From the IMG/VR virus record IMGVR_UViG_3300043120_000083, positions 1 to 64,000 of that record: a DNA stretch of 64,000 bases; one strand, given 5' to 3'. Origin of the DNA: a virus (taxonomy: Duplodnaviria; Caudoviricetes). The position numbers and the translations under genes are program-made. Positions 826-63,862 of the stretch are shown in pieces. The notes beneath the pieces were generated by a model that had not been told where the DNA came from, ran no database searches, and saw only the letters and a program-made list of their open reading frames with translations. Numbering within the stretch: the first letter of the stretch is position 1; every line of letters starts with the position of its first letter.

Positions 826-3012
826 ATGGCAGATTACGTAAGAATACCGTATTTAGGAAAAGAAAATACAACTGTAGAACAATTTTTACAGGATAACGAT
901 ACACGTATATGGAATTTATCTAAACAATCTTTTTTAGATTATGAGGAAGATACAGGGTATAGTAATTTAGAAAGGATTTATGAGAACTATAATGAAATAC
1001 AAAAAGCGGAATACAAGAATGATTGGTTGAATGGAAGTTTGAGTGTTATATTTCCCAACACGGATTTAATTATCCCTAAAACAAATACCGATTTACATAC
1101 AATAACTCTTTACGGAGATAATCAATACTTAAATCAAAAACAAAAATTCTTTACTTACTGGTCAGATAATTACAACGCTCTGATAACAAATGACGGCTTT
1201 GTAAAGACTGAGAACCTTACTGTAGAATCTGGGGTAAGGAATATAAAAAGTACAGTAAATACACAAATAATTAATGAAAACTTGCGTGTTTGGGTATGGT
1301 GCAGGGCATTAAATAGCATTATTAATCTTTCCCCTTTCATTTCTAACTTAAATACAAGTAAAGGCGAAGGTGCAGGTTCTTTTAATATTATAGCTGATCC
1401 GATTGTGGATTTGGAAGAAATACAATTTTCCGGCTCTGGGGTTATTAATTATTTCAATACAGACAATCCTTCTAAATCAAGTGTGTTAGATTTCTTCTCT
1501 AAACACTTTCAAAAGAATGATGTTGTATTTATTAGGTATGAAAAACTAAATCTTGAACAAGAAAATGAAGATAGCTCGCAATTAGATAGGCCGTTTGAAA
1601 TAAACAAAACATTGCTTGTAGGAGAATCAGAAGATTTACCTTTTGCGAGAAATTGGGACATGATAGGTTTAATAGATAATGTCAGGTCTTCTTATAGTGC
1701 TCAAAGTACAGATCAGTTTGTAAATATAGAAGGGAGAGATTTAACTAAATTATTAATAGATGATGGTTCATTCTTTGTTCCTGTAAGATATGTAGAGGGT
1801 AGTGATAAAAATTGGATTTGGGGTGGGGATTCTGCTTCTGGAGTTATACAAAGAAATAAAGTAAGTGGTTCTTATGATTATTTCTTTGCTTACGTAATGA
1901 AGTCAATTAAACAATCTTTAGGTTTTGTCATTAATCACCTTTCCAATTTAGGTATTGTCCCGGATGATTTGTTTGCAGCTTACGGAGATAAAATATCAAA
2001 AGTGTATGAATATCCTACTGAAGATAAAACGTATTTAGAGCAAAAGAAAGTAAAGGGAATATGGCAAATAGTTAAGTTGTTTATAGACCCACCAACGGAA
2101 GACAGAAGAATATCTGATGATAGCCTTGCTAACCCTGATGGAACATTGTTTGAATTGATAAATAAACTATGTCAGAAACCTTTTGTGGAATTTTGGGGAG
2201 ATACTAATGGAGATACGTTTGATTTTGTTGTACGTCAACCCCCCACATCTAAAGAACAAATACAGGATGTTGTAAATCAAGGTAAATTCATAACCATTGA
2301 AGACAAAGACTTAATTAGATATGATTTAGAATTTGATGAAAGATTTTATAGTTATTATCAATTACAACCAGAGAACACTTTTCTTGGTGAAGATGGATTT
2401 AGTGCATTAGCTTATCTTCCTATTGTTTATGTAGATAGAATTGCAGAAGTTTATGGAAATCAAAGGTTGGTAGAAAAAGATAATTATATTTCTATAAGAG
2501 CTTTAAAAGGGGATAAAAATGAAAATCAAGACTTCAATTTATTTCTAAATACATTACTGCCGGACTATAAATACATAATTGAATCAAATCAATATCTTCA
2601 ATTTACACGTAGAGGACAAATAACAATAAATGGGGATAGAAGGATAAAACGCGGAACTTTCATTAAATTCAATAAGACTAATGAATTGTTCTATGTAACT
2701 CAGGTTTCTCATTCTCTATCAATAGGTAAAGGTGTAATAGAAAGAACCACAACTATAAACGTAGAAAGAGGAATGATTTTCGATTATATAAAGGGAAGTA
2801 TGGTAGATTATGAGCTGAATGGAGAAGTAAGAAAAGAGTGGATAAGTTACTTTGATATAATAGACACAGAATTGTTATATCAAAACCTTATTGAGAATAT
2901 TAATTCAGAATCGGGAGCTAAAGGTTCACGATCAAAAGAAAATATAAAGACAAATTTTGGAGTAAGAGATGAAGTGTTTGATTTCTTTGTTAACAGAAAA
3001 CAATTTCAATAA
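826..3012 (+). CDS. baseplate hub / tail-associated protein (gp27/gpD-like)
   Basis: 728 aa. 'IEGRDLTKLLID' and C-terminal 'GQITINGDRRIKRGTFI..FYVTQVSHS..TTINVERG' are typical of hub proteins; follows the tape measure gene. Confidence 0.65.
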   Translation: MADYVRIPYLGKENTTVEQFLQDNDTRIWNLSKQSFLDYEEDTGYSNLERIYENYNEIQKAEYKNDWLNGSLSVIFPNTDLIIPKTNTDLHTITLYGDNQYLNQKQKFFTYWSDNYNALITNDGFVKTENLTVESGVRNIKSTVNTQIINENLRVWVWCRALNSIINLSPFISNLNTSKGEGAGSFNIIADPIVDLEEIQFSGSGVINYFNTDNPSKSSVLDFFSKHFQKNDVVFIRYEKLNLEQENEDSSQLDRPFEINKTLLVGESEDLPFARNWDMIGLIDNVRSSYSAQSTDQFVNIEGRDLTKLLIDDGSFFVPVRYVEGSDKNWIWGGDSASGVIQRNKVSGSYDYFFAYVMKSIKQSLGFVINHLSNLGIVPDDLFAAYGDKISKVYEYPTEDKTYLEQKKVKGIWQIVKLFIDPPTEDRRISDDSLANPDGTLFELINKLCQKPFVEFWGDTNGDTFDFVVRQPPTSKEQIQDVVNQGKFITIEDKDLIRYDLEFDERFYSYYQLQPENTFLGEDGFSALAYLPIVYVDRIAEVYGNQRLVEKDNYISIRALKGDKNENQDFNLFLNTLLPDYKYIIESNQYLQFTRRGQITINGDRRIKRGTFIKFNKTNELFYVTQVSHSLSIGKGVIERTTTINVERGMIFDYIKGSMVDYELNGEVRKEWISYFDIIDTELLYQNLIENINSESGAKGSRSKENIKTNFGVRDEVFDFFVNRKQFQ

Positions 3013-3842
3013 TGCAGGGAGTAAGTAGGAATAAAATATCAAATAATTTCCCCCCGGTAGGGATAGGATATATCATGATACCTTCTAATTTAGAAAGGGA
3101 TGAGTATGTACGTAATTGTTATGATAGAGAAAGAGTGTGTGTATATATAGAACAGTCTGGAAGCATGGCAAAGGATTGTTACATATCACAACAAGCCCTT
3201 AGAGATATAACTTTTCCTGCTGACACTACAAAACTTGGAAGCCCTGTAATATTCGTTTCTGAAAAATTTACAAATAAACCAATTGTAGTTTCTACGGTAT
3301 CTAAAGAAGATGAAACAGAATTACTTTCTGAATATAGGTTTAAACTTGAAAAAGCATATAAGAATAACAAAGTAAAGATTGAAGCCGATGCAGAAAAGGG
3401 TGTTTTAAATATATTTGTTGATGATAAGGAAGAGTTTGGTGTAATAAATTTATCAGTAAAGGGGAAAGAAGGTGGCGTATTAAATATAGACACATCAAAT
3501 AAGGTTCATATAAACGCTGATAAAGAAATTAATGCACAGTCATCAGGAGAAATTAAAATTAAGACTATTGACAGCCTTTCTGGGGACGTTAAATGCGAAA
3601 TAAGGGCAGATGGTCAAGACGTATATATAAAGCCCGAAAATGAGCTTAGAATAGGTGAATTTAATGAACCTTCTGTTTTAGGAGATACATTAGCTGATTT
3701 ATTAGATGGATTAATTACAGAAATATCAAATTCTCTTGTTTCCACAGCATTAGGGCCACAACCTCTATTAAACAAAGCACAGATTGCAGCTTATAAACAA
3801 CAATTAGAATCAATAAAAAGTAAGGTAATTAAAACAAGTTAA
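3012..3842 (+). CDS. baseplate central spike (gpV/gp5-like)
   Basis: Beta-helix-like middle region and C-terminal 'EPSVLGDTLADLLDGLI'; follows the hub gene. Confidence 0.55.
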   Translation: MQGVSRNKISNNFPPVGIGYIMIPSNLERDEYVRNCYDRERVCVYIEQSGSMAKDCYISQQALRDITFPADTTKLGSPVIFVSEKFTNKPIVVSTVSKEDETELLSEYRFKLEKAYKNNKVKIEADAEKGVLNIFVDDKEEFGVINLSVKGKEGGVLNIDTSNKVHINADKEINAQSSGEIKIKTIDSLSGDVKCEIRADGQDVYIKPENELRIGEFNEPSVLGDTLADLLDGLITEISNSLVSTALGPQPLLNKAQIAAYKQQLESIKSKVIKTS

Positions 3843-3843
3843 T

Positions 3844-4092
3844 ATGACAGTAGTAAAACCGACAATACAAACACAAATAAGAAGTATGCTTCAGGGGTTT
3901 AAAGATAAAACAACAGCAGAAGAGGCAGAAACTACTATGGATGAATTGGCAGATGAATTATCTACAATTATACAGGAAGCAATATTGTCTGCAACCATAA
4001 CAGTCCCAACGGGAATACCTGTTTCTACAACGGGAACAGCGGCAGCGCAAACGGGAGCAACGACTGCCCCGGCAACAGCAACAATAGCTTAA
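3844..4092 (+). CDS. small virion protein, possible spike-tip protein
   Basis: 82 aa with Thr/Ala/Gly-rich C-terminus, directly after the spike gene. Confidence 0.4.
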   Translation: MTVVKPTIQTQIRSMLQGFKDKTTAEEAETTMDELADELSTIIQEAILSATITVPTGIPVSTTGTAAAQTGATTAPATATIA

Positions 4093-4147
4093 TTAAATTT
4101 TTTAAAACCATTATTTTTTATTAATTTTAAGGTAAACAAAGTAGAGC

Positions 4148-4915
4148 ATGGATTTAGGGCAGATAACAAGAAGGTATCAGAATCAACTACAAACATTAGG
4201 TCGTTCCGGGCTTAATGCTTTGTTTCCTTATGATTTTGAGGTCTATATGGTAGCTCTTGAATTAACAAATAGTTCAGGACAGACCATTGATTATCTGTCT
4301 TTCCCTATTACTCCTGAATCAATAAGTAAAAGTGAACCGAAAAGGACAAATATTAGAAACACTTCTTCAGGGGTTACGGTATTGAGTTCAAGTACGTTCA
4401 TGCCTGAAGATATTACATTAAAAGGTAATTTTGGACGTAATTTTAAGATATTATTATCTGACAACGAACCCTCTATTGAGGGGGTTGCATATAGTACAAC
4501 AGCAGGAGTTTATGATTTAACACAAATAGGCACAACGAATAGAACACTTTCTCTAAACTCACCTTTATTCAATTTAGGAGTAAAGACAGGATATGGAGCA
4601 ACAAGGATTTTGAAAGCTATTGTTTCAAAAAGTAATGGTGTAGATAGAGATGGAAAACCGTTTAGGCTATATTTTTATAATTTAGCGTTAGGTGAAAGTT
4701 ATTTAGTAGCAGTTCCTCCAGCAGGAATAACAATATCTCAAACGAAAGATAAGAATATGATATGGGAGTATAACTTGAATTTGAAAACAATAGCTCCCTT
4801 GAGTAGTTTAAAATCAAATATAGGGGGTAGTTCTTTAATAAAAACATTATCCACTAATGTTATACAAAAAGGGATAAATACTGTAGGTTCGGAAATAGTT
4901 AATTTATTAAGTTAA
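4148..4915 (+). CDS. tail/baseplate structural protein (tube-initiator-like)
   Basis: 255 aa. 'FPITPESISKSEP..DITLKGNFG..WEYNLNLK' pattern; baseplate context. Confidence 0.45.
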   Translation: MDLGQITRRYQNQLQTLGRSGLNALFPYDFEVYMVALELTNSSGQTIDYLSFPITPESISKSEPKRTNIRNTSSGVTVLSSSTFMPEDITLKGNFGRNFKILLSDNEPSIEGVAYSTTAGVYDLTQIGTTNRTLSLNSPLFNLGVKTGYGATRILKAIVSKSNGVDRDGKPFRLYFYNLALGESYLVAVPPAGITISQTKDKNMIWEYNLNLKTIAPLSSLKSNIGGSSLIKTLSTNVIQKGINTVGSEIVNLLS

Positions 4916-5814
4916 TGGGGTTAGTTGAGTTTAAAAATAAAACAGGTTATGATTTGGAGAAATTCTTCAATGACTTTGTTATATTTATTAACGAAGACCT
5001 ACAACCTATTGTTAATTTTTATAATGGAGGTACAACCCCTAATGAATCTTTCAGGGAATTAGAAAGATTGTTATCAGAATCTTACAAAATTGAATCAATT
5101 TGGGAAATATATGGTTCTCGATTTAATAATGCCATATATTGGGAATTGTTAGATAAGTTTACTGAAGCACAAGGTAAACTATTTACTTGTAAAAAAATGT
5201 CAAAGTGGGCAAGAAGTTCAAGATTAGGAGAATTTGATAGTAGTATAAAGTTTCAAAGAGGGTTAAAACAATTTGAAACATTTGAGCAAGTTTCAAGTTC
5301 AACTGGATCTCAGTCTCCGCAAGATGATTGGGCAGATATAGCGATAAGTAATTTTAAGGTTGAGGAAGATTATACGAATGAAGGAGGTACAATATTTTCA
5401 GTAAGCCTAAAAAACAACATGAATTTTGATATTCCTAATATTGTTGATACTTTAGTGAATGAAAATATATATGGGAAGGATATAAATAAGGACGTTAAAT
5501 TTATAGATAATGATTTAGGTGTTGTGATGTTTAACGATGCTTTAAAACAATCATTAGACACTAAATTAGCTACATTAAAAGGAGATATACCGGAATTTCC
5601 TGAGATAGGCTTAAACCCAAAGTCAACATCTTCTAATGTTAACACAATACAATACCCTTCAATATTTAGAAACTTACTTAGTTCGTTTCAATTAGACGGT
5701 AGATGGGCAGAAATAAATTTATTAGATATAAGTAGAGAGGAAGATGGGGTGATGATTAAAATTGAAGTAAAAACTGTTTTAAAAGACAATTACGTCACTA
5801 ATTTAAAAGTTTAA
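4915..5814 (+). CDS. baseplate wedge protein with C-terminal gp25-like domain
   Basis: 'ATLKGDIPEFPEIGL..FQLDGR' resembles gp25/gpW; immediately upstream of baseplate J. Confidence 0.55.
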   Translation: MGLVEFKNKTGYDLEKFFNDFVIFINEDLQPIVNFYNGGTTPNESFRELERLLSESYKIESIWEIYGSRFNNAIYWELLDKFTEAQGKLFTCKKMSKWARSSRLGEFDSSIKFQRGLKQFETFEQVSSSTGSQSPQDDWADIAISNFKVEEDYTNEGGTIFSVSLKNNMNFDIPNIVDTLVNENIYGKDINKDVKFIDNDLGVVMFNDALKQSLDTKLATLKGDIPEFPEIGLNPKSTSSNVNTIQYPSIFRNLLSSFQLDGRWAEINLLDISREEDGVMIKIEVKTVLKDNYVTNLKV

Positions 5815-53512: not shown

Positions 53513-53534
53513 CCATATAAAAGATATTAATTTG
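53513..53534 (+). promoter_or_regulatory. promoter motif copy (CCATATAAAAGATATTAATTTG)
   Basis: Same 22-nt frame; 4 nt upstream of the helicase ATG. Confidence 0.6.
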
Positions 53535-53538
53535 CCGT

Positions 53539-54870
53539 ATGAATTACGTTTTAAGAGATTATCAAGAAAGGGCAGTTCAGGATGGATTAAACTTCTTCCG
53601 TTCTAAAAGCAAAAAGAATGGGTATATGGTGCTTCCTACCGCAGCAGGGAAATCAATTATCGTTGCTAATATAGCTAAACAACTGAATACCAACGTTTTA
53701 GTTTTACAACCCACCAAGGAGCTTTTATTTCAGAACCATGAAAAATTTATTTCATACGGCTATGATGCTTCAATCTACTCAGCAAGTTTTGATAGCCGGG
53801 AAGTAGGACAAGTGACTTTTGCAACGATAGGGAGTATCTACAAGAAACCTGAATTATTTAAAGATTTTCATTATATCATCATTGATGAGTGCCATTTAGC
53901 TTCCCCGGACGATAGCTCAATGCATAAAAAGTTTTTTAATGAATTGAAAGTTAAGGTTTTAGGGTTAAGTGCGACACCATTTAGGCTGAAAAGCTACAAC
54001 TTCCCAACCCGTCACTCTAAGTTAAACTTTCTTGACCGAATGAGGCCAAAGATTTTTAGTGAACTGGTTCATGTTACTCAGATTCAAGAAATGACAGAAA
54101 GAGGTTACTGGGCACCTCTGGGATACATTAGTAAGCCTTTTGACCGTTCTAAGCTTAAAGTAAATTCAACCGGAGCAAACTACACAGATGATTCTATAAA
54201 ACAAGCTATGATTGAGCAGGATGTTGTTCAACAGGCTTACGAAATGGCTTTGATATTAAAGAAAGAAGGTAGGAAGAAGATTTTAATTTTCATGCCCGAA
54301 ATAGCAATGGCTGAAGAGCTTGCTGAAATGTTAGGGGTTAATGCTGTAAGCAGTAAAACAAAGAAAAAGGAAAGGGAAGAGTATATTAATAATTTTAAGG
54401 CTGGAATTGATTTTGCTATTATAAACGTTAATGTGTTGGCTGTTGGATTTGATGATCAAAGAATAGATGCAATAATAGATGGTAAACCCACTATGTCTCT
54501 GGGTATTTATTATCAGAAGTATGGGAGAGGGGTGAGGGTTGATTTATCCACTAATCCGGTTAAGCATGATTGCCTGATTGTTGATTTGGTAGGTAACTAC
54601 GAAATGTTTGGCAAAATAGAAGATTTCATAATAAAAAAGAATGCAATAGGCAAATGGGCTTTGTTTTGTGGAGATAAGCAACTAACAAATACAGAACTTG
54701 TAAAGGATAAAAATGTAAACCTTGAAGATGAAATAATGGGGTTTGGTAAATATAAAGGAGAGCCTTTCAGGTTCATACCTAAAAGTTACTGGAGATTTAT
54801 TCGAGACAACTTCAAAAGAAGTGCAGAAAATGAGAAGTTATTTAATTATATAGAAACTATTGAATTGTAG
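53539..54870 (+). CDS. SF2 DEAD/DEAH-box helicase (YejH/UvsW-like)
   Basis: 'LRDYQ', 'LPTAAGKS', 'IIDECH', 'LSATPFR', 'QKYGRGVR'; C-terminal 'FGKYKGE' domain. Confidence 0.9.
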   Translation: MNYVLRDYQERAVQDGLNFFRSKSKKNGYMVLPTAAGKSIIVANIAKQLNTNVLVLQPTKELLFQNHEKFISYGYDASIYSASFDSREVGQVTFATIGSIYKKPELFKDFHYIIIDECHLASPDDSSMHKKFFNELKVKVLGLSATPFRLKSYNFPTRHSKLNFLDRMRPKIFSELVHVTQIQEMTERGYWAPLGYISKPFDRSKLKVNSTGANYTDDSIKQAMIEQDVVQQAYEMALILKKEGRKKILIFMPEIAMAEELAEMLGVNAVSSKTKKKEREEYINNFKAGIDFAIINVNVLAVGFDDQRIDAIIDGKPTMSLGIYYQKYGRGVRVDLSTNPVKHDCLIVDLVGNYEMFGKIEDFIIKKNAIGKWALFCGDKQLTNTELVKDKNVNLEDEIMGFGKYKGEPFRFIPKSYWRFIRDNFKRSAENEKLFNYIETIEL

Positions 54871-55078
54871 GCAAATGAATGATATGATAAAAGAAATAGT
54901 TGAGCGTAAACTAAGTTATAATAAAAAACAATTGCAGAAATTTATAGATGTAGGTAATAAATCTGCAATTCGTGACTATGAAGTAAGGTGTCATACATTA
55001 GAGGATATACTTGAAGATGCAGACGAAGCGAATGAAGGTCAACAACCAGGCAGCAACTGCAATATTACCGCATGTTAA
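54860..55078 (+). CDS. hypothetical protein of the distal cassette, possibly frameshifted from a zinc-ribbon C-terminus (55071-55178)
   Basis: 72 aa ending NCNITAC*. The +1 frame continues HVNVSVCPKCGC...WCQNEECDFVEAD*. Confidence 0.5.
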   Translation: MNCRQMNDMIKEIVERKLSYNKKQLQKFIDVGNKSAIRDYEVRCHTLEDILEDADEANEGQQPGSNCNITAC

Positions 55079-55183
55079 CGTTTCGGTTTGCCCTAAATGC
55101 GGTTGTAATAAAATTACTGGAGATGGAACGAAAAGCTGGTGTCAAAATGAAGAATGTGACTTTGTGGAGGCAGACTGAGCGTT

Positions 55184-55272
55184 AACGTCCCGGCTTGTAT
55201 GTGCCGTGCAGGCCGCACACAGTAAATTTTCACGGCACTAACTTAACAAGCATGGCATATTACAAGCTTGTT
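55184..55272. repeat. attC-like site S1
   Basis: AAC(55184), arm GCTTGTATGTGCCGTGC (55193-55209), arm GCATGGCATATTACAAGC (55250-55267), GTT(55270). Confidence 0.8.
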
Positions 55273-55575
55273 AGAAAACGTTTTAGCGCGATGGGCAATA
55301 ATATGATATCAATTCACGATTTAAAGGAAAATCTTTGTAAAAAATATTATGGGAGTAATAGAAAAGTGTATAGACAATGTGACATGAATCAACTTTTGAG
55401 AATGTGGTCTGATTTAAACCATTTAACAGAATTACATGAAAGGACTAGGCTTGTTCCTTACAACCTTGAATTTAGAAGTAAAAAAGCCATCCCTATTTAC
55501 AACGCCCACTTATCAGTATTACAGAAGAAGTACCCACATATTTTAGAATTTCAACAAATGAGGCACATACAATGA
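55252..55575 (+). CDS. cassette hypothetical protein (start uncertain: 55252, 55291 or 55303)
   Basis: Open frame; the first ATG lies inside the right arm of S1. Confidence 0.55.
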   Translation: MAYYKLVRKRFSAMGNNMISIHDLKENLCKKYYGSNRKVYRQCDMNQLLRMWSDLNHLTELHERTRLVPYNLEFRSKKAIPIYNAHLSVLQKKYPHILEFQQMRHIQ

Positions 55576-55793
55576 TTTCACAAATAGCAATTATGATTTT
55601 TGGAGCTTCAGCAATTTGGTTTGTGAGTAGAACTGAAAAATGGAAACGATGGGGCTATATATTAGGACTGTGTGGACAGCCATTTTGGATATATACAACT
55701 ATACAAAATGAACAGTGGGGAATTTTAATCATGACATTGGTTTACGCTTATTCATGGGCACAAGGAATTTGGAATTATTGGATTAAAAAATAG
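55572..55793 (+). CDS. cassette small membrane protein (PnuC/SemiSWEET-like three-helix)
   Basis: 73 aa, three TM helices, 'WGYILGLCGQPFWIY..QWG..GIWNYW'. Confidence 0.6.
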   Translation: MISQIAIMIFGASAIWFVSRTEKWKRWGYILGLCGQPFWIYTTIQNEQWGILIMTLVYAYSWAQGIWNYWIKK

Positions 55794-55797
55794 ATAT

Positions 55798-55974
55798 ATG
55801 GAAACGATTTTTACTAAATTAAGTGGTAATACTTCTGGAAATAAATATGGAGGTTATACAGATCAAAGCATTGTAATAACTCAAATAATTGATGGAGAGC
55901 AGAAAGTTATTATCCTAAATAAAAAAGAGTTAGAAGAATTAGAAAGAGTTATAGGCGCTAAATTTAAAGCTTAG
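55798..55974 (+). CDS. cassette hypothetical protein (58 aa, not in ORF track)
   Basis: METIFTKLSGNTSGNKYGGYTDQSIVITQ...AKFKA*. Confidence 0.55.
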   Translation: METIFTKLSGNTSGNKYGGYTDQSIVITQIIDGEQKVIILNKKELEELERVIGAKFKA

Positions 55975-55999
55975 ACTTGCGGGAAGGAAATGTTTTTCT

Positions 56000-56120
56000 A
56001 ACGTTGAGTATATGATTTCGGTGGCGATTGATTGCAGGACTTTTCGCATACCGACTAACTAACAAGACTGCACAGTGGTTAAATTCGACACCTTAACGCC
56101 ACTGAATTATATACATTATT
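56000..56120. repeat. attC-like site S2
   Basis: AAC(56000), GTATATGATTTCGGTGGCG (56008-56026) / CGCCACTGAATTATATAC (56097-56114), ATT(56118). Confidence 0.8.
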
Positions 56121-56199
56121 AGGTGCTGTACGGTAAATAACCGATAAACTTGATTTGAAAAACTAACGTAAAAAATTAAAAAATAGGGAGGAAATTTTT

Positions 56200-56940
56200 A
56201 TGAAATATATGGGAAGTAAAAACAGAATTGCAAAGCACATTTTACCTATAATGCTAAAATATAGAACACCTGAAATGACTTGGGTAGAACCTTTTGTTGG
56301 CGGTGCAAATATGATTGATAAGGTTGAGGGTAAAAGAATAGGTGGAGAATACAATAAGTATATTGCCGAAATGTGGAAAGCACTTGAAGCAGGATGGATT
56401 CCAAGAAGCGACTATACGAAGGACGATTACTACAACATAAAGGCGAATATGGATAGAAACCCTGCTGAAGCGGGATATGTTGGGATTGCAGTAAGTTATT
56501 GTGGTAAGTGGTTTGGTGGATATGCTGGACTTTGCGACAATAAAAGCCGTGGGCCTGTTGACTACCAAAAACAGGCATACAACAACTTAATAAAGCAATT
56601 GCCAAATATTAAAGGTATTAAATTTATACATAGTAGCTACCAAGACTTAGAAATACCACCAAATAGCCTTATTTATTGCGATCCTCCTTATGAAAGTACA
56701 ACAAAATACAAAGACGACTTTAACCATGCTGAATTTTGGCAATGGTGTAGAGACAAATCAAAAGAAGGACACACCGTATTTGTGAGTGAATATAATGCTC
56801 CAGATGATTTCTACTGCATTAAAAAGGTACAAACAAATACGCAACTTGGAAATGGCTGCCAGACAGGAAGCCAAAATAAGTGCGATAAACTTTTTACCCC
56901 AATGGCTGCGATAGCAGACAAAGAGCGTGGGCTTTTTTAA
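56200..56940 (+). CDS. cassette-borne Dam-like (D12 class) DNA adenine methyltransferase
   Basis: 'KYMGSK', 'EPFVGGAN', 'YCDPPY', 'VFVSEY'. Confidence 0.88.
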   Translation: MKYMGSKNRIAKHILPIMLKYRTPEMTWVEPFVGGANMIDKVEGKRIGGEYNKYIAEMWKALEAGWIPRSDYTKDDYYNIKANMDRNPAEAGYVGIAVSYCGKWFGGYAGLCDNKSRGPVDYQKQAYNNLIKQLPNIKGIKFIHSSYQDLEIPPNSLIYCDPPYESTTKYKDDFNHAEFWQWCRDKSKEGHTVFVSEYNAPDDFYCIKKVQTNTQLGNGCQTGSQNKCDKLFTPMAAIADKERGLF

Positions 56941-56995
56941 TTTTTGGTAATATACTACGAACCTTCATTAAGAGAACGAAGGCAGTATTGCACCT

Positions 56996-57268
56996 AACGG
57001 TAAATGCAAGGGTATGTGCTGCCTTGAAAACTGTACAAAAGTAGATACGAGTAAATAACGATTAAATAATTAAGCGATGGCAAAAATTAATGAATTTGAG
57101 ATAAGCATGGTTTGTTATAATGAAGATAACAAATACACATTAGAAGAAATAAACGATATGCTTGTAGAATGGGCTGAAAGTAAAGATATATACTTAGGTG
57201 GCTCTGTTAAACCGTGTGCGCCGGAGGAAACTTCGGACGAGAGCGCAGCATTACCTTTGCATGGTGTT
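56996..57268. repeat. attC-like site S3 with 222-nt coding loop
   Basis: AAC(56996), ATGCAAGGGTATGTGCTGC (57004-57022) / GCAGCATTACCTTTGCAT (57245-57262), GTT(57266). Confidence 0.75.
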
Positions 57269-57391
57269 AGCCAACAACGTGAACTGTTATTGGCTTTTGC
57301 TAAATGGGAGTACGAAAGTGCAGAATTTGACGACACTAACGAATACTTAGTTGACAAGTTTTTGGAAGAAAAAGCCAATAATTGTGGCTAA
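57077..57391 (+). CDS. cassette hypothetical protein reading through site S3
   Basis: 104 aa. 'AALPLHGVSQQRELL' is encoded by the right arm and GTT box; the stop TAA overlaps the next AAC box. Confidence 0.7.
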   Translation: MAKINEFEISMVCYNEDNKYTLEEINDMLVEWAESKDIYLGGSVKPCAPEETSDESAALPLHGVSQQRELLLAFAKWEYESAEFDDTNEYLVDKFLEEKANNCG

Positions 57392-57514
57392 CGTCAAACT
57401 TGTATAAAATGGCGGGGATATGTAGCACTGACGTATCAACCCGGCATAAACCTTAAATAACAGTGCAAGCGGGCTAAAAAGTCACCACAACCCCGCTTTT
57501 TTATACAAATTGTT
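57390..57514. repeat. attC-like site S4
   Basis: AAC(57390), TTGTATAAAATGGCGGGG (57400-57417) / CCCCGCTTTTTTATACAA (57491-57508), GTT(57512). Confidence 0.8.
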
Positions 57515-57531
57515 GTGGTGCGTTTTTGTTT

Positions 57532-57789
57532 ATGTTTGACAATTGCATATCACAATTAAGGCACGATGTTCAGAAATATCAGGATATATTGAACGCTATT
57601 GAACAGGCTCAACAAAAATTACCTGAGTTTAAAGTAAAGGGCCCTGGGTCAAAGCATGAGTTTTATCTCAATTGTATTGAAGACTGGAAAAAACAAATTG
57701 AAGAATTAGAGGTCACACTTTTACCATCTATGAAAGAATTTGAAGAAAAATATAAAAACAAACACCATTTAAAGGAATTGGGTTTTTAA
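57532..57789 (+). CDS. cassette hypothetical coiled-coil protein
   Basis: 85 aa from ATG 57532; fills the segment between the GTT and AAC boxes. Confidence 0.6.
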   Translation: MFDNCISQLRHDVQKYQDILNAIEQAQQKLPEFKVKGPGSKHEFYLNCIEDWKKQIEELEVTLLPSMKEFEEKYKNKHHLKELGF

Positions 57790-57797
57790 TGCACCAC

Positions 57798-57883
57798 AAC
57801 GGTACGGCAATATGATTAGTTGCCACACCACAGACTTTGAAATTTAGTAATAATTTGACAGGCAATTAATTATATTGCTTGTC
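57798..57883. repeat. attC-like site S5
   Basis: AAC(57798), GGCAATATGATTAGTTGCC (57806-57824) / GGCAATTAATTATATTGCT (57861-57879), GTC(57881). Confidence 0.8.
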
Positions 57884-57901
57884 ATAAATCTGATAAAAAT
57901 T

Positions 57902-58090
57902 ATGAGGAAACTAACTCAAGAACAAAAACAAATGATGGATAGAGCAATAAAGTTTGCACCAGCACGACAGATATTTATGTGGGTGTGGTGGGAGATTTTT
58001 TGCCACCGAAAAGCAGATAAACTTATAAAATGTGTAGAAGTTGGAATGACTTGGATCGCTGCATACACAATCGCAAAAAATGTGCGATAA
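57902..58090 (+). CDS. integrase-proximal cassette hypothetical protein
   Basis: 62 aa from ATG 57902. Confidence 0.55.
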   Translation: MRKLTQEQKQMMDRAIKFAPARQIFMWVWWEIFCHRKADKLIKCVEVGMTWIAAYTIAKNVR

Positions 58091-58099
58091 TTTTTATTT

Positions 58100-58144
58100 G
58101 TTTATAACTATTATATATAAATATTTACCTTTAAACATTTGATT
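58100..58144 (-). other. putative attI-like site
   Basis: GTTTATAAC (58100-58108; minus strand GTTATAAAC) closes the last cassette. It is followed by AT-rich DNA and the integrase start, not by a hairpin. Confidence 0.5.
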
Positions 58145-58954
58145 ATGAATATAAAACACAAATCAACATTAGGAAAATTTGAAAAATATCTTAACCTTAA
58201 AGGATATTCTAAAAGGACTATTGATATGTATATTCATTACACAAAAGAATATATTAATAGTTTTAATAAGCCAGCCATACATTTAACAATTAAAGATTGT
58301 CAGAATTATATAGAATCATATAAATTTTCTTCTAAATCTCAACAAAACCAAATTTATTCATCTTTAAAGGCATACTATAAAAGTGTGTTGAATATTGATC
58401 TTTCACATAAAATATTTTTAGAACGTCCCAGAAAAGAAAAACGTCTTCCACAAATAATAGAGAAAGAATACCTATTGTCCTGTATCAATAATATCAAAAA
58501 TTTAAAACACAAGTCAATAATTTCTTTAGGGTTTTCGGTAGGATTAAGAGTTTCTGAGGTTTGTAATTTAAAGATTGAAGATATTGATTCAAAAAGAATG
58601 ATTATTAATATAAGGCAAGCTAAAGGGAGAAAAGATAGGGTTGTGCCCTTATCTCAGAATATACTTAATCTTTTAAGGGAATATTATAAACAATACAGAC
58701 CAAAAACTTATTTATTTAACGGGCAAAATTCAATCAAATATTCTCCAACTTCCTGCAATAAAATAGTAAAGAAATATATTGGGGAACAATATCATTTTCA
58801 CCAATTAAGACATTCATCCTTCACCTCTCTTTTAGAATCAGGAACAGATTTAAGGATAATACAAAAACTTGCTGGTCATCAAAATTCCAAAACTACAGAA
58901 CTTTATACACATGTATCAAATGAGACTCTTTCTAAAATAAGCCTTCCTATTTAA
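58145..58954 (+). CDS. integron-integrase-like tyrosine recombinase
   Basis: N-terminal SAM-like 'GYSKRTIDMY', 'PRKEKRLP', R 'GLRVSE', K 'AKGRKDR', HxxR 'HQLRHS', 'GTDLRIIQKLAGH', Y 'TTELYTHV'. Confidence 0.9.
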   Translation: MNIKHKSTLGKFEKYLNLKGYSKRTIDMYIHYTKEYINSFNKPAIHLTIKDCQNYIESYKFSSKSQQNQIYSSLKAYYKSVLNIDLSHKIFLERPRKEKRLPQIIEKEYLLSCINNIKNLKHKSIISLGFSVGLRVSEVCNLKIEDIDSKRMIINIRQAKGRKDRVVPLSQNILNLLREYYKQYRPKTYLFNGQNSIKYSPTSCNKIVKKYIGEQYHFHQLRHSSFTSLLESGTDLRIIQKLAGHQNSKTTELYTHVSNETLSKISLPI

Positions 58955-60900: not shown

Positions 60901-61200
60901 ATGAACTATTTAATTCCAATCCCTAACGGGCAATGCCTTTCAACTAAGAGATTGAAAGAGGTTAAAAAATTTATCCCTGAGAATAACGTTCTCAGGTTAC
61001 ATTTAGTAAATGAGAAACTTTCTCTAAATCAGAATAAGAAATACCAACCTCAACCGTACATCGTTCAAATAACTCAAAAAGAAATGGATGAAATAAAGAA
61101 AGAGATCAATAAAAAAGCAAAGTATAATTTGAATGAGGTTTATATCCTTGTTCAATCTCGTAATTTACCAATTGTAAAAATAGAAGTAGGAAATGAATAA
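60901..61200 (+). CDS. hypothetical protein
   Basis: 99 aa ORF. Confidence 0.5.
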   Translation: MNYLIPIPNGQCLSTKRLKEVKKFIPENNVLRLHLVNEKLSLNQNKKYQPQPYIVQITQKEMDEIKKEINKKAKYNLNEVYILVQSRNLPIVKIEVGNE

Positions 61201-63862
61201 ATACACAAGAGAGGAAGCTGTAAAAGCAGCAACGAAGTATTTCGGTGGAGATAGTTTAGCCGGGAATGTGTGGACAGATAAATATTCTTTGAAGGATTCA
61301 GAAGGGAATATTTACGAAAAAACCCCGGATGATATGCACTGGAGGTTAGCAAGGGAGTTAGCACGTATTGAAGCTAAATACCCAAACCCCATGAGCGAAG
61401 AACAAATATTTGGGCTATTAAAAGAGTTTAGGTATTTAGTTCCTCAAGGTGGCCCGATGGCTGGTATTGGAAATAATTTTGTAACAACATCCCTCAGTAA
61501 CTGTTTCGTCATCCCATCTGCAAAAGATTCATATTCAGGGATAATGAAGACAGATCAAGAACAGGTTCAAGTTATGAGGCGAAGAGGAGGTTGCGGACAT
61601 GATATTTCAACCCTTCGCCCTCATGGAACAACAGCCAATGGAGCTAAACTTAAAGGGAATACTGGTTCTACTTTGTTTATGGAACGTTTCTCTAATTCAA
61701 CAAGGGAGACTGCTCAGGACTCAAGAAGGGGAGCACTTATGTTAAGTATGGATATAAAACATCCAGATGCAGAAAGATTTATTGACATGAAAGTTGACAC
61801 TAATAAAGTTACCGGGGCCAATATTTCTGTAAGAATTTCTGATGATTATATGGAAAGCGTTAAGCACAAAGGAAAGTTTAAACAACAATTCCCTATTGAT
61901 TCAGAAAAACCCATAATGGAAAAAGAAATAGAAAGTAAAAAATTGTGGGATAAAATAATTCATAATGCGTGGAAGTCAGCAGAACCCGGAATTTTATTTT
62001 GGGATAATATTTTAAATGAATCTCCAGCTAAAGGGTATGGGGAGGATTGGAAAGAAACATCAACTAATCCGTTAGCCAATTAAATAACGTGCGGATTTAA
62101 AACCTCTTCTTATTGACTTGGACGGTGAACACACACCTACAGGGGGCAAGTTTAAATACAGCTTGAGAGACTAAGCGAAGAGGACACGAAAGTGTATGCG
62201 ATAGTCCAGCGCACAGTAAGAAAGTGTTTGATACTTACGGTGTGAGGCGGTGAGATTCCCCTTAACCCACAAGATAGCTGTAGATTACTGGCTATCAACT
62301 TGTTTTCTTATGTGAATAATCCTTTCACTAAAGAGGCACAATTTGATTTCGGTTTGTTTAAAAAGCATGTAAAATATGCCCAAAGATTAATGGATGATAT
62401 AGTTGACCTTGAGATTGAAAAGATTGATAAAATTATTGAAAAGGTTTTAAAAGACCCAGAACCATTAGAAGTAAAACAAGTTGAATTAAACCTATGGAAA
62501 AACGTAAAAGAACGTGCATTAGAAGGCCGAAGAACCGGATTAGGAGTAACTGCTGAAGGAGATATGTTAGCAGCCTTAAACATGGTATATGGTACTGAAT
62601 TAGCCACTTCATTTAGTGAAGACGTTCATAAAAATTTAGCCATTGCTGCTTATGAGTCTTCTATTGATATGGCTAAAGAAAGAGGAACGTTTAAAATATG
62701 GGATAGAGAAAAAGATTTGAATGGTGGTTCTAAGTTCATTGATCGTATTTACAAACAACTTTCTTCAGAATACCAAAGGAAATGGATTGAGACTGGACGT
62801 AGAAACATTGCTTTGTTGACCATTGCTCCAACCGGAACAACCAGCCTGATGACACAAACAACTTCAGGAATTGAGCCTGTATTTTTGCCTTTCTATAAAA
62901 GAAGAAGGAAGACAGAAGACCCTGAAAAATGTGTATTTACTGATGAAGTTGGTGATATGTGGGAAGAATACATGGTTGTTCACCCTAAATATAAAATGTG
63001 GTATGAGATAAATAGAATGGGTTTTGTAGGTATTGATAAAGTAGATATTGAAGACCTCACGGAAGAAGAGATGGAAACCATCTACAAAATGTCTCCATAT
63101 TACAAAGCAACTTCTAGTGATGTTGATTATTTAGGTAAAGTTGATATGCAGGGTAGAGTTCAAAAGTGGGTTGATCACTCTATTAGTGTCACTATCAATA
63201 TGCCTAAAGAAGTTACAGAAGAAACTGTAGGTGAAGTTTACATGAAAGCATGGGAAGTTGGCTGTAAAGGGGTAACTGTTTACCGTGACGGTTCCCGGTC
63301 TGGAGTTCTTATCTCAGGTAAGGAAGAAAAGAAAGAAGGGGAAATAATTTACAACGATGCCCCTAAAAGACCCAAGAATTTGCCTGTAGATGTTTATCAC
63401 AAAATGGCTTTGGGTAAAGAGTTTACTATCCTTGTAGGTCTTTTAAAAGGAAAACCGTATGAAATATTTGCTTTTGAACAATTATCACAGTCAGAATTTC
63501 CTAAAGAGATAGAAAGGGCAGAGTTAACCAGAGTACGTAAGAATCACTACAGGTTAACCGGATACCGTGGAGAACAAAAGTTTGTCATCGAGAATATTGT
63601 GGAAAATATGAATGATGATGAGAAGTTTCAAACCCGTGATTTTTCTCGTAGTTTAAGGCATGGAGAACATCCTAAATATATCTGTAATGATATTGATAAG
63701 AGTTCTTTTGTGAGTAGTTTTAGGAAGGTTGTAAGTCGGGTTTTGAAAAACTATCTTACTAATGAGGATGTGAAAGACAAATGTCCTGATTGTGGGGGAG
63801 AACTTAAATTTGAGAGCGGGTGCAAACAATGCGATAATTGTGGGTGGTCAGCCTGTGGATAA
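61193..63862 (+). CDS. nrdJ: class II (adenosylcobalamin) ribonucleotide reductase; exons 61193-62072 and 62247-63862 (831 aa spliced)
   Basis: 'SLSNCFV', 'RRGALM', 'SAEPGILF'; splicing restores 'STNPCGEIPL'; 'TIAPTGT', 'GIEP', 'GCKGVTVYRDGSR'; C-terminal Zn ribbon. Confidence 0.93.
62073..62246 (+). ncRNA. group I self-splicing intron (174 nt, no ORF)
   Basis: Exon end AAUCCGU pairs with IGS GCGGAUU (62091-62097), U.G at the splice site. P3 CCUCUUC/GAAGAGG; P7 GACUA/UAGUC; P8 ACAC-GAAA-GUGU; terminal G at 62246. Confidence 0.9.

Follow-up and report, generated by a model that had tools for sequence, protein, structure and literature searches.

The window analysed here is the 64,000-nucleotide (nt) stretch at positions 1 to 64,000 of IMG/VR virus record IMGVR_UViG_3300043120_000083, from a phage of the Caudoviricetes. 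At 55184-58144 it carries an array of small units, each with a hairpin, directly upstream of the gene for a tyrosine recombinase. Array and recombinase likely form a phage-borne integron-like cassette platform that, regarding its genes, is the mirror image of a bacterial integron. A first-pass annotation, made from the letters of the window alone, had proposed this inverted polarity, and comparison with relatives supports it. As read from the sequences, the unit consists of a hairpin after a 5' AAC, a GTTA box (R'), at least one open reading frame (ORF), and an end box (R'') of the form NNNNNTAA complementary to the unit's own GTTANNNNN. Whole units are found in some relatives and are missing or have other neighbours in others, and the breakpoints lie at the + strand (T)AAC; the recombinase-proximal position is hypervariable, and the ORFs run toward it. 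New here are the reversed gene polarity of an integron-like platform, the Xer-like recombinase without the insertion of integron integrases (IntI), and the phage as carrier.

Natural variants and the polarity of the unit

The polarity is best seen in contigs that have a recombinase region 100% identical over 900 nt and differ in their arrays. Contig L019 ends in ...GGAGCATAAC|attI (in fuller form ...GCAATGGAGCATAAC|TATCATATAT), while L017 has the same 118 nt up to the AAC and then GGTTG, an 80-nt hairpin, TT, GTTATGTAC, and an ORF. The extra unit of L017 ends in ...GTACATAAC|attI (in fuller form CTTGTACATAAC|TATCATATAT), and this form is repeated in the independent contigs L087 and L095. L089 ends in ...TTGTTTATAAC|attI, and L028 is identical to it for 63 nt up to that AAC; the extra unit of L028 has a complete ORF, about 55 codons long, between its arms CAAATATAAACA and TGTTTATATTTG, and then TT, GTTATAAAA, 11 nt, and TTTTATAAC|attI. 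L016 and L018 are identical over 419 nt, which start with the ATAAC of the hairpin in front of the last ORF and reach into the recombinase gene; upstream of the shared AAC their cassettes are unrelated. Homology between L098 and L102, which have an 89% identical backbone, is lost exactly at a hairpin AAC, and the pairs L040/L043 and L026/L028 differ directly left of TAAC. With the matches of a pattern search for one attI flank, the set of contigs reaches 22, with 14 different sequences directly left of TAAC.

These junctions (L019/L017, L089/L028, L016/L018) bear out the annotated crossover at the + strand AAC, and in three contig pairs what was gained, lost, or moved is a hairpin plus its downstream gene, the mobile unit that the annotation had described. 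It had also asked whether variability is highest next to the integrase, where 14 proximal cassettes are found among the 22 contigs of one attI flank. No variant junction in the compared contigs lies at GTT, the outcome that it had named as contrary to its proposal. By analogy with integrons, the cassette next to the integrase would be the newest, as it had also suggested.

The direction of the ORFs toward attI likewise holds in the family: in 93 of the 97 non-identical units, the recombinase strand carries the longest ORF. This ORF starts upstream of the R' GTT, inside the hairpin, in 39 of 96 units, so that a crossover at G|TT would cut the gene. The stop codon is the TAA of TAAC in 20 of 96 units, and many more ORFs end within 20 nt of TAAC; the 3' end of the gene abuts the unit boundary, a position held by the 5' end in classical cassettes. 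In the L028 unit and in gp59 of Polaribacter phage P12002L, almost all of the ORF lies between the hairpin arms.

An all-versus-all blastn comparison of 110 units for the same cassette in different arrays found almost no close pairs outside near-identical contigs because the cassettes are extremely diverse. Pairs of methyltransferase and gp58-like cassettes are 65-73% identical, too diverged to judge the accompanying hairpin. The variable left flanks were also considered as bacterial DNA beside an attP site; this was rejected because the flanks are hairpin cassettes, nested one inside another, and phage genes lie on both sides in the window.

The attI-like box and linked hairpins among relatives

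At least 286 IMG/VR stretches encode homologues of the 269-amino acid (aa) recombinase; 82 loci were examined for a box beside the gene, and 57 had enough upstream sequence for chaining of the hairpins. The 80 best relatives have 54-67% identity and lie on contigs of up to 362 kb. The box NNNNNTAAC|TAYTATATATAAA (TAAC|TAYTATATATAAA) is found upstream of the recombinase gene in 64 of the 82 loci, and it is the exact breakpoint at which the 22 contigs carry 14 alternative cassettes. A simple attI beside the 5' end of the integrase gene, as annotated and as in integrons, fits both observations. The window's own array ends in TAAC|TATTATATATAAA directly 5' of the recombinase gene, and the last unit of every array is without a downstream hairpin. 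Searching IMG/VR for exact matches to the attI flank of the window itself yielded no close relative.

Chaining was done with a script that starts at the box and searches upstream for the complement of the 9-mer beside a hairpin, allowing at most one mismatch in nine. In 52 of the 57 loci there are 1-9 linked hairpin sites, and in most links the 9-mer at R' matches the complement of the next R'' box, usually as a perfect 9-mer.

The nearest relatives in bacterial assemblies are almost all from Bacteroidota, and some have the same box and arrays; this fits the blastn matches of the window's methyltransferase cassette, which are to Polaribacter and Cellulophaga phages. Homologues with a TAAC|TACTATAT box and 1-5 chained hairpins upstream are found in L112 (a Flavobacterium urumqiense isolate) and in L116 and L175 (Bacteroidota metagenome-assembled genomes), and these arrays could be prophages, binned phage contigs, or chromosomal arrays. 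More distant chromosomal relatives, with 43-45% identity, are found in Maribacter, Croceitalea, and Flagellimonas genomes (L122, L123, L132). About 100 nt 5' of the recombinase match, they have the downstream sequence TATTGGATATCCG... in common, with unrelated flanks to its left; the break follows AAC in L122 and L132 and GAC in L123, and they may be a related element family with a similar core. The phage carriers, contigs of 100-360 kb among them, look virulent.

Hairpin structure and strand choice

The hairpins fall into size classes of about 80 nt, about 118 nt, and a long-loop class of 130-440 nt. In an alignment of 26 sites of the 80-nt class, the integrase-adjacent site of the window included, the foot is TAACG/TGTTA (5 bp), the AAC side has a bulge of 3-4 nt, the stem is 20 bp long, and G.T pairs occupy four fixed positions. 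Paired cells make up 96.5% of this alignment, versus 75% in shuffles and about 40-55% with the partners slid; compensatory changes are present at 18 of 25 pairs, and none of 500 shuffles reached the observed values. At the family level the hairpin pattern is far above chance, while the fold z-scores of single hairpins in the window are weak (-0.2 to -2.4). Generic scans of the 101-kb genome for AAC-stem-GTT or for inverted GTT...AAC 8-10-mers gave counts near shuffle levels and are uninformative alone. The feet are of the RYYYAAC/GTTRRRY type, and with the stem and the favouring of one strand they resemble attC sites; the canonical extrahelical bases of attC are not seen in the hairpins, which have the asymmetric bulge and the fixed G.T pairs instead. 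No Rfam family matches the hairpins.

The + strand hairpin is the more stable at 62 of 69 sites when sites are defined strand-symmetrically (means of -13.5 versus -11.8 kcal/mol, Wilcoxon p = 1e-11), and isolated stem mismatches are G.T in 98 cases and A.C in five. This asymmetry identifies the ORF-sense strand as the one selected to fold, as far as sequences can tell. The folded + strand has the layout 5'-RYYYAA|C ... GTTRRRY-3', like the recombined bottom strand of a classical attC, but it is coding. Its unpaired bases are on the AAC side, whereas the canonical extrahelical bases of attC are on the 3' arm of the recombined strand.

At the box positions by which the links were defined, complementarity to R' is 0.89-1.0 for the R'' at the cassette's own end and 0.17-0.58 for that of the same hairpin; position -10, which was left unconstrained, gives 0.69 versus 0.39. 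Complementary end boxes are the signature of circularising units. They cannot settle the polarity because crossovers at the + strand G|TT and AA|C both predict them.

A loop of 11 nt, TCGTTTTAATG, recurs in short hairpins (about 42 nt) of otherwise unrelated phages (L003 6430-6445 and 6850-6865; L028, L091, and L098; L184). In L028, L091, and L098, just left of their terminal boxes, this hairpin is flanked by a GTTA box and its complementary TAAC box; no ORF is present, and the unit looks like an empty mini-cassette.

The recombinase

The recombinase gene (58145..58954, + strand) adjoins the array and points away from it. Its product of 269 aa is a simple two-domain tyrosine recombinase of Xer/IntI-like type (Pfam Phage_integrase and SAM_4), with the catalytic R, K, HxxR, H, and Y intact and conserved among relatives. 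The best profile match is NCBIfam XerA with 180.6 bits (cutoff 220), followed by the integron integrase TIGR02249 with 148.6 bits in two stretches (cutoff 265), XerC with 138 (cutoff 335), XerD with 137 (cutoff 330), and PRK15417 with 87 (cutoff 435); all Xer and integron-integrase scores are under the curated cutoffs. The closest structures in the Protein Data Bank are XerA of Pyrococcus (4a8e, the best) and of Thermoplasma (5hxy). Vibrio IntI4 (2a3v) is alignable no further than residue 187, the start of the IntI insertion, and alignment with relatives has nothing inserted between KGRKDR and YLFNGQ; the insertion specific to IntI (the I2 region) is absent. The protein is also shorter than IntI, which has about 320 aa. 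By the defining feature of the IntI family the recombinase is not an IntI, though the system appears integron-like in its working. Its action on the array is predicted.

The array in the window

Direct reading of the + strand gives six AAC boxes, at 55184-55186, 56000-56002, 56996-56998, 57390-57392, 57798-57800, and 58106-58108. The following base is G at the first five and T at the sixth. The partner triplets of the first five are GTT (55270), ATT (56118), GTT (57266), GTT (57512), and GTC (57881), two of the five being degenerate. The annotation had reported the invariant AAC, the G after five, and the two degenerate partners in the same way, and its unit coordinates 56998-57391 and 57800-58107 match those derived here. 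All five cassettes are on the + strand.

Cassette A (55186..56001) extends from the C of the AAC at 55184-86 to the AA at 56000-01. Its hairpin has the foot TTAAC-G, the arms GCTTGT (55193-98) and ACAAGC (55262-67), TT, and an R' GTTAGAAAAC at 55270 that is complementary to the R'' GTTTTTCTAAC / GTTTTCTAAC ending at 56002. Three small ORFs follow (55291-55575, 55572-55793, 55798-55974), for which a Pfam search gave no matches. Cassette B (56002..56997) has a hairpin from the AAC at 56000-02 with arms of about 20 bp and a degenerate R' ATTAGGTGC (56118-26), complementary to GCACCTAA(C) at 56990-98; the box pair can also be read as ATTAGGTGC versus GCACCTAAC. It carries a D12-class DNA adenine methyltransferase identified with Pfam (56200-56940).

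Cassette C (56998..57391) has a long-loop hairpin with the left arm at 57004-57022, the right arm at 57245-57262, and an R' GTTAGCCA (57266-73) that is the reverse complement of the end box TGGCTAAC. The right arm and GTT are located 250 nt downstream of the site, and the hairpin is not apparent at first. The ORF 57077-57391 starts in the loop, runs across the right arm and R', and stops with the TAA of GGCTAAC; since GTT 57266 sits within it, a G|TT crossover there would split it. In long-loop cassettes the right arm and GTT are translated (window 57245-57275; L008 2040-2060, 2650-2670, and 2970-2990), so the DNA recombination signal doubles as coding sequence, and the peptide A-(L/F)-x-L-x-G-V recurs (AALPLHGV in the window).

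Cassette D (57392..57799) begins at the AAC 57390-92 and has arms of about 21 bp and a 10-nt R' GTTGTGGTGC at 57512, the perfect complement of GCACCACAAC ending at 57800; an ORF follows (57526/57567-57789). Cassette E (57800..58107), adjacent to the integrase, begins at the AAC 57798-800, has the ORF 57902-58090, and ends in TTTATAA(C). Its hairpin has 18-bp arms (57807-24 / 57861-78) and a degenerate R' GTCATAAA at 57881, complementary to TTTATAAC; it is alignable with the 80-nt class, and the arms are similar to those of a P12002L hairpin. The attI-like simple site (58101..58123, + strand) has the sequence TTTATAAC|TATTATATATAAATA and lies 22 nt upstream of the integrase start codon region. 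It has no hairpin: the fold of 58080-58150 has -2.3 kcal/mol and z = 0, in agreement with an annotated integrase-proximal AAC box without one.

At the distal end, a doubtful unit (55074..55185, + strand) has GTTAACG at 55074 facing CGTTAAC at 55180-86, inside the ORF 55011-55178, the product of which is a small Cys-rich protein. The annotation had noted a right half-site here; the motif is present and has no left arm, but it carries little weight. GTTAAC is its own reverse complement, which makes the site weak evidence for a sixth unit, and its best stem score is 4 versus 5-15 at the other sites in the same test.

Genome setting and transcription

The source record is a 101,026-bp virus with 33% G+C that is estimated to be 96% complete, and the host group is probably Bacteroidota. 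Every gene from 48.5 to 64 kb is on the + strand. Upstream of the array are genes for an NAD-dependent DNA ligase, a GNAT protein, and a ResIII/DEAD helicase (53539-54870), and downstream of the recombinase are those for RNase H, a UvrD-type helicase, and ribonucleotide reductase, which places the array in the phage replication module. The large subunit of ribonucleotide reductase is in two ORFs (61193-62083 and 62300-63862) that cover barrel-domain positions 1-201 and 240-523 and are separated by 216 nt; the split could be due to an intron, an intein-like insertion, or a frameshift.

Outside the window, the same genome has a solitary unit of the same build at 76,140-76,425, 18 kb from the recombinase. 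Its order is ATAGCTAAC, GGTTG, a stem of 19 bp, GTTAGCAACT, an ORF with its start in the loop and a length of about 69 codons, and AGTTGCTAAC|TCTCATATATAAAAT. No hairpin follows the terminal TAAC|TCTCATATATAAAAT, and this would amount to a second attI-like end.

The cassette genes face attI, and for this reason a promoter of the Pc type would be unusable by them; they would presumably be read through from the operon of the replication module or from internal promoters. A sigma-70 promoter and terminator scan gave results at chance level, with no + strand site near 53513, where the annotation had placed a promoter motif, and the sigma-70 model is unsuited to Bacteroidota. The Bacteroidota -7 motif TAnnTTTG gave one suggestive site in the array, the -7-like TATGTTTG at 57531-57538, about 35 nt 5' of the ATG at 57567 and alone not above chance. 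A terminator-like hairpin with a T-run (58070-58088), at the end of the last cassette ORF and before the attI-like site, is also not above chance alone.

Polaribacter phage P12002L

Clusters of attC sites lacking integron-integrases (CALINs) have been reported in virulent phages including P12002L (Qi et al. 2023; PMC9892861), where a screen of phage genomes with IntegronFinder and HattCI found no integrase and two sites "with divergent directions". The literature search found no account of a system like the present one beyond that report. The published CALIN covers only two of the sites of this phage: P12002L has seven chained hairpins and a hairpin-less terminal GGGTAAC box, all of one polarity (L008: 34209-42817 reverse complement, 1860-5560). 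It has no homologue of the recombinase, which fits the CALIN category. The window array is not a CALIN, since the recombinase gene abuts it. The gp54 methyltransferase and gp58 of P12002L are homologues of the window's cassettes B and C; the gp54-type methyltransferase has an upstream hairpin similar to that of cassette B, and gp58 has the layout of cassette C but a different hairpin after it. A short hairpin with the loop TCGTTTTAATG is also found between its methyltransferase genes gp36 and gp35 (L184: 29300-30900).

In the published assays, attC2 is the only P12002L site recombined by IntI1 (PMC9892861). It abuts the terminal TAAC box, and its active "bottom" strand, as mapped from the published primer table, is the ORF-sense strand here. 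The inactive attC1 was predicted in classical orientation between two methyltransferase genes. With a foreign integrase, these assays lend weak support to the polarity.

Alternative explanations

Under classical polarity, each ORF would be followed by its attC, with the crossover at the + strand G|TT, the recombinase at the far downstream end, and attI helicase-proximal or absent. The sites after each ORF do read RYYYAAC...GTTRRRY on the + strand in textbook-like form, R-box complementarity fits this order equally, and the unpaired bases would be on the 3' arm were the - strand folded. Even so, this order is extremely unlikely: the nested variants break at AAC and not at GTT, the hairpin of L016/L018 travels with the downstream ORF, and identical 190-nt hairpins would have to belong to two unrelated upstream genes. 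The final unit of each array is also without a downstream hairpin, the leftmost site is a full hairpin rather than a simple site, the longest ORF often spans GTT, and the - strand folds worse at 62 of 69 sites. The hairpins may alternatively be RNA elements (terminators, or elements for processing or translation control) in a region that turns over by illegitimate or homologous recombination, with the recombinase serving lysogeny or dimer resolution. They are on the sense strand with G.U-compatible pairs at fixed positions, one terminator-like hairpin is found at 58070-58088, and the function of the recombinase is a predicted one. RNA elements would not account for base-exact breakpoints at a 4-nt core in several independent pairs with unrelated hairpins, for units that each have their own complementary end boxes, or for an attI-like box conserved at the recombinase gene, and the array lies in the replication module of a 101-kb phage and its hairpins match no Rfam family; this explanation is very improbable.

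A further possibility, unlikely though less so than the two above, is recombination of duplex DNA in the manner of Xer at a core of TAAC, 5 nt, and a GTATA-like sequence, with an attI-like site and with the palindrome serving as a cruciform, in protein binding, or in RNA structure. A recombinase nearest to XerA and without the IntI insertion would suit it, and the attI-like TAAC-TATTA-TATATA is colinear with the left arm TAAC-GNNNN-GTATA. The stem covariation is strong, however, pairing of the end box with the unit's own R' matters only if a single strand folds, and the asymmetry between G.T and A.C points to selection on one strand. The integron-like platform with mirrored genes remains the preferred reading, and several points weigh against it. 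IntI needs the I2 insertion for recognition of attC, and the recombinase, which lacks it, may have a separate role, such as lysogeny or dimer resolution. The G.T bias could equally come from RNA folding, the + strand being the mRNA strand, and the position of the unpaired bases makes the analogy with IntI imperfect. Insertion and deletion are indistinguishable in these sequences, the cut is not placeable within the shared (T)TATAAC bases, and the distal end of the window's array is ill-defined. The annotation had also argued for its crossover from an invariant AAC beside a degenerate GTT. This asymmetry is seen in the window but is anecdotal and not family-wide: GTT is as invariant as AAC across 72 related sites, which had been selected for differing from the complement of the next R'' box by no more than one base in nine.

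Proposed mechanism

By analogy with integrons, the recombinase of the platform would bind the folded + strand hairpin, with its 5-bp TAACG/TGTTA helix, AAC-side bulge, and stem of about 20 bp with fixed G.T pairs. It would cut between the A and C of the 5' AAC and exchange the strand with the colinear attI-like site, and replication would resolve the product. Both the folded single strand as substrate and the position of the cut are drawn from this analogy. An excised circle would regain the R helix of 9-10 bp, and for cassette C the circle junction is expected to be ...TTGTGGCTAA joined to CGGTAAATGC....

Cargo and wider significance

A scan of 101 ORFs from the cassettes gave about six DNA methyltransferases (of C5, N4/N6, and D12 types) and one match each to ART-PolyVal, dual-specificity phosphatase, HNH endonuclease, and nucleotidyltransferase; most ORFs have no family. 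Orphan DNA methyltransferases make up most of the cargo recognised to date, and this suggests that co-infecting phages exchange counter-defence genes. It is moderately likely that phages, probably of Bacteroidota, own a widespread gene-capture system, either a sister of integrons or an independent invention. Such a system would have an Xer-like recombinase without the insertion, hairpins on the coding strand, and hairpin-first cassettes read toward attI, and would share a pool of counter-defence genes (methyltransferases, an ADP-ribosyltransferase domain) between co-infecting phages, including those with integrase-less arrays like P12002L.

A natural system that keeps the recombination logic of integrons but flips the genes, lacks the insertion, and lives in virulent-looking phages raises the questions of whether I2 is needed for recombination of hairpin cassettes, why strand choice is tied to gene orientation, how cassettes are expressed without Pc, and whether phages trade anti-defence genes as site-specific cassettes. 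The reversed polarity explains why only two sites "with divergent directions" came out of the published screen for P12002L (PMC9892861). Arrays of the reversed type may be under-counted in viromes.

Comparison with known systems

The P12002L CALIN has the same kind of hairpin sites and homologous methyltransferase and gp58-like cassettes; the window, unlike P12002L, carries the full platform, recombinase and attI-like site included. Archaeal XerA and XerC/XerD are the closest in structure and profile and share the simple two-domain architecture. The recombinase scores under their curated cutoffs, its context is a cassette array and not a dif site, though no search aimed at dif-like sites was made, and its predicted targets are hairpins with a TAAC core.

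In integrons it is the bottom, non-coding strand that folds; Pc drives transcription of the genes in the direction away from attI, and the extrahelical bases are recognised by the IntI insertion. Like class 1 and Vibrio chromosomal integrons, the platform has the 5' end of the recombinase gene beside a simple attI-type site and pointing away from the array, imperfect hairpins with AAC/GTT feet between units, one strand selected to fold, units with their own complementary end boxes, and a hypervariable position beside attI. It differs in that the hairpin precedes the gene, in place of an ORF followed by attC with a G|TT crossover, and in that the ORFs are antisense to the classical direction and the folded strand is the coding one. 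Its recombinase of 269 aa falls outside the IntI family by its lack of the I2 insertion, its hairpins have the 3-5-nt AAC-side bulge and fixed G.T pairs and no canonical extrahelical bases, and many of its ORFs start in the hairpin loop, with Pc-type expression not possible. Its carriers are phages, and no lysogeny genes are apparent around it. In the "inverted integrase" integrons of Treponema and others, integrase and cassette genes share one strand, as here, but the integrase is flipped upstream of the cassettes and the order of ORF then attC is kept. The present platform has its integrase in the classical place with respect to attI and has flipped ORFs inside the cassettes.

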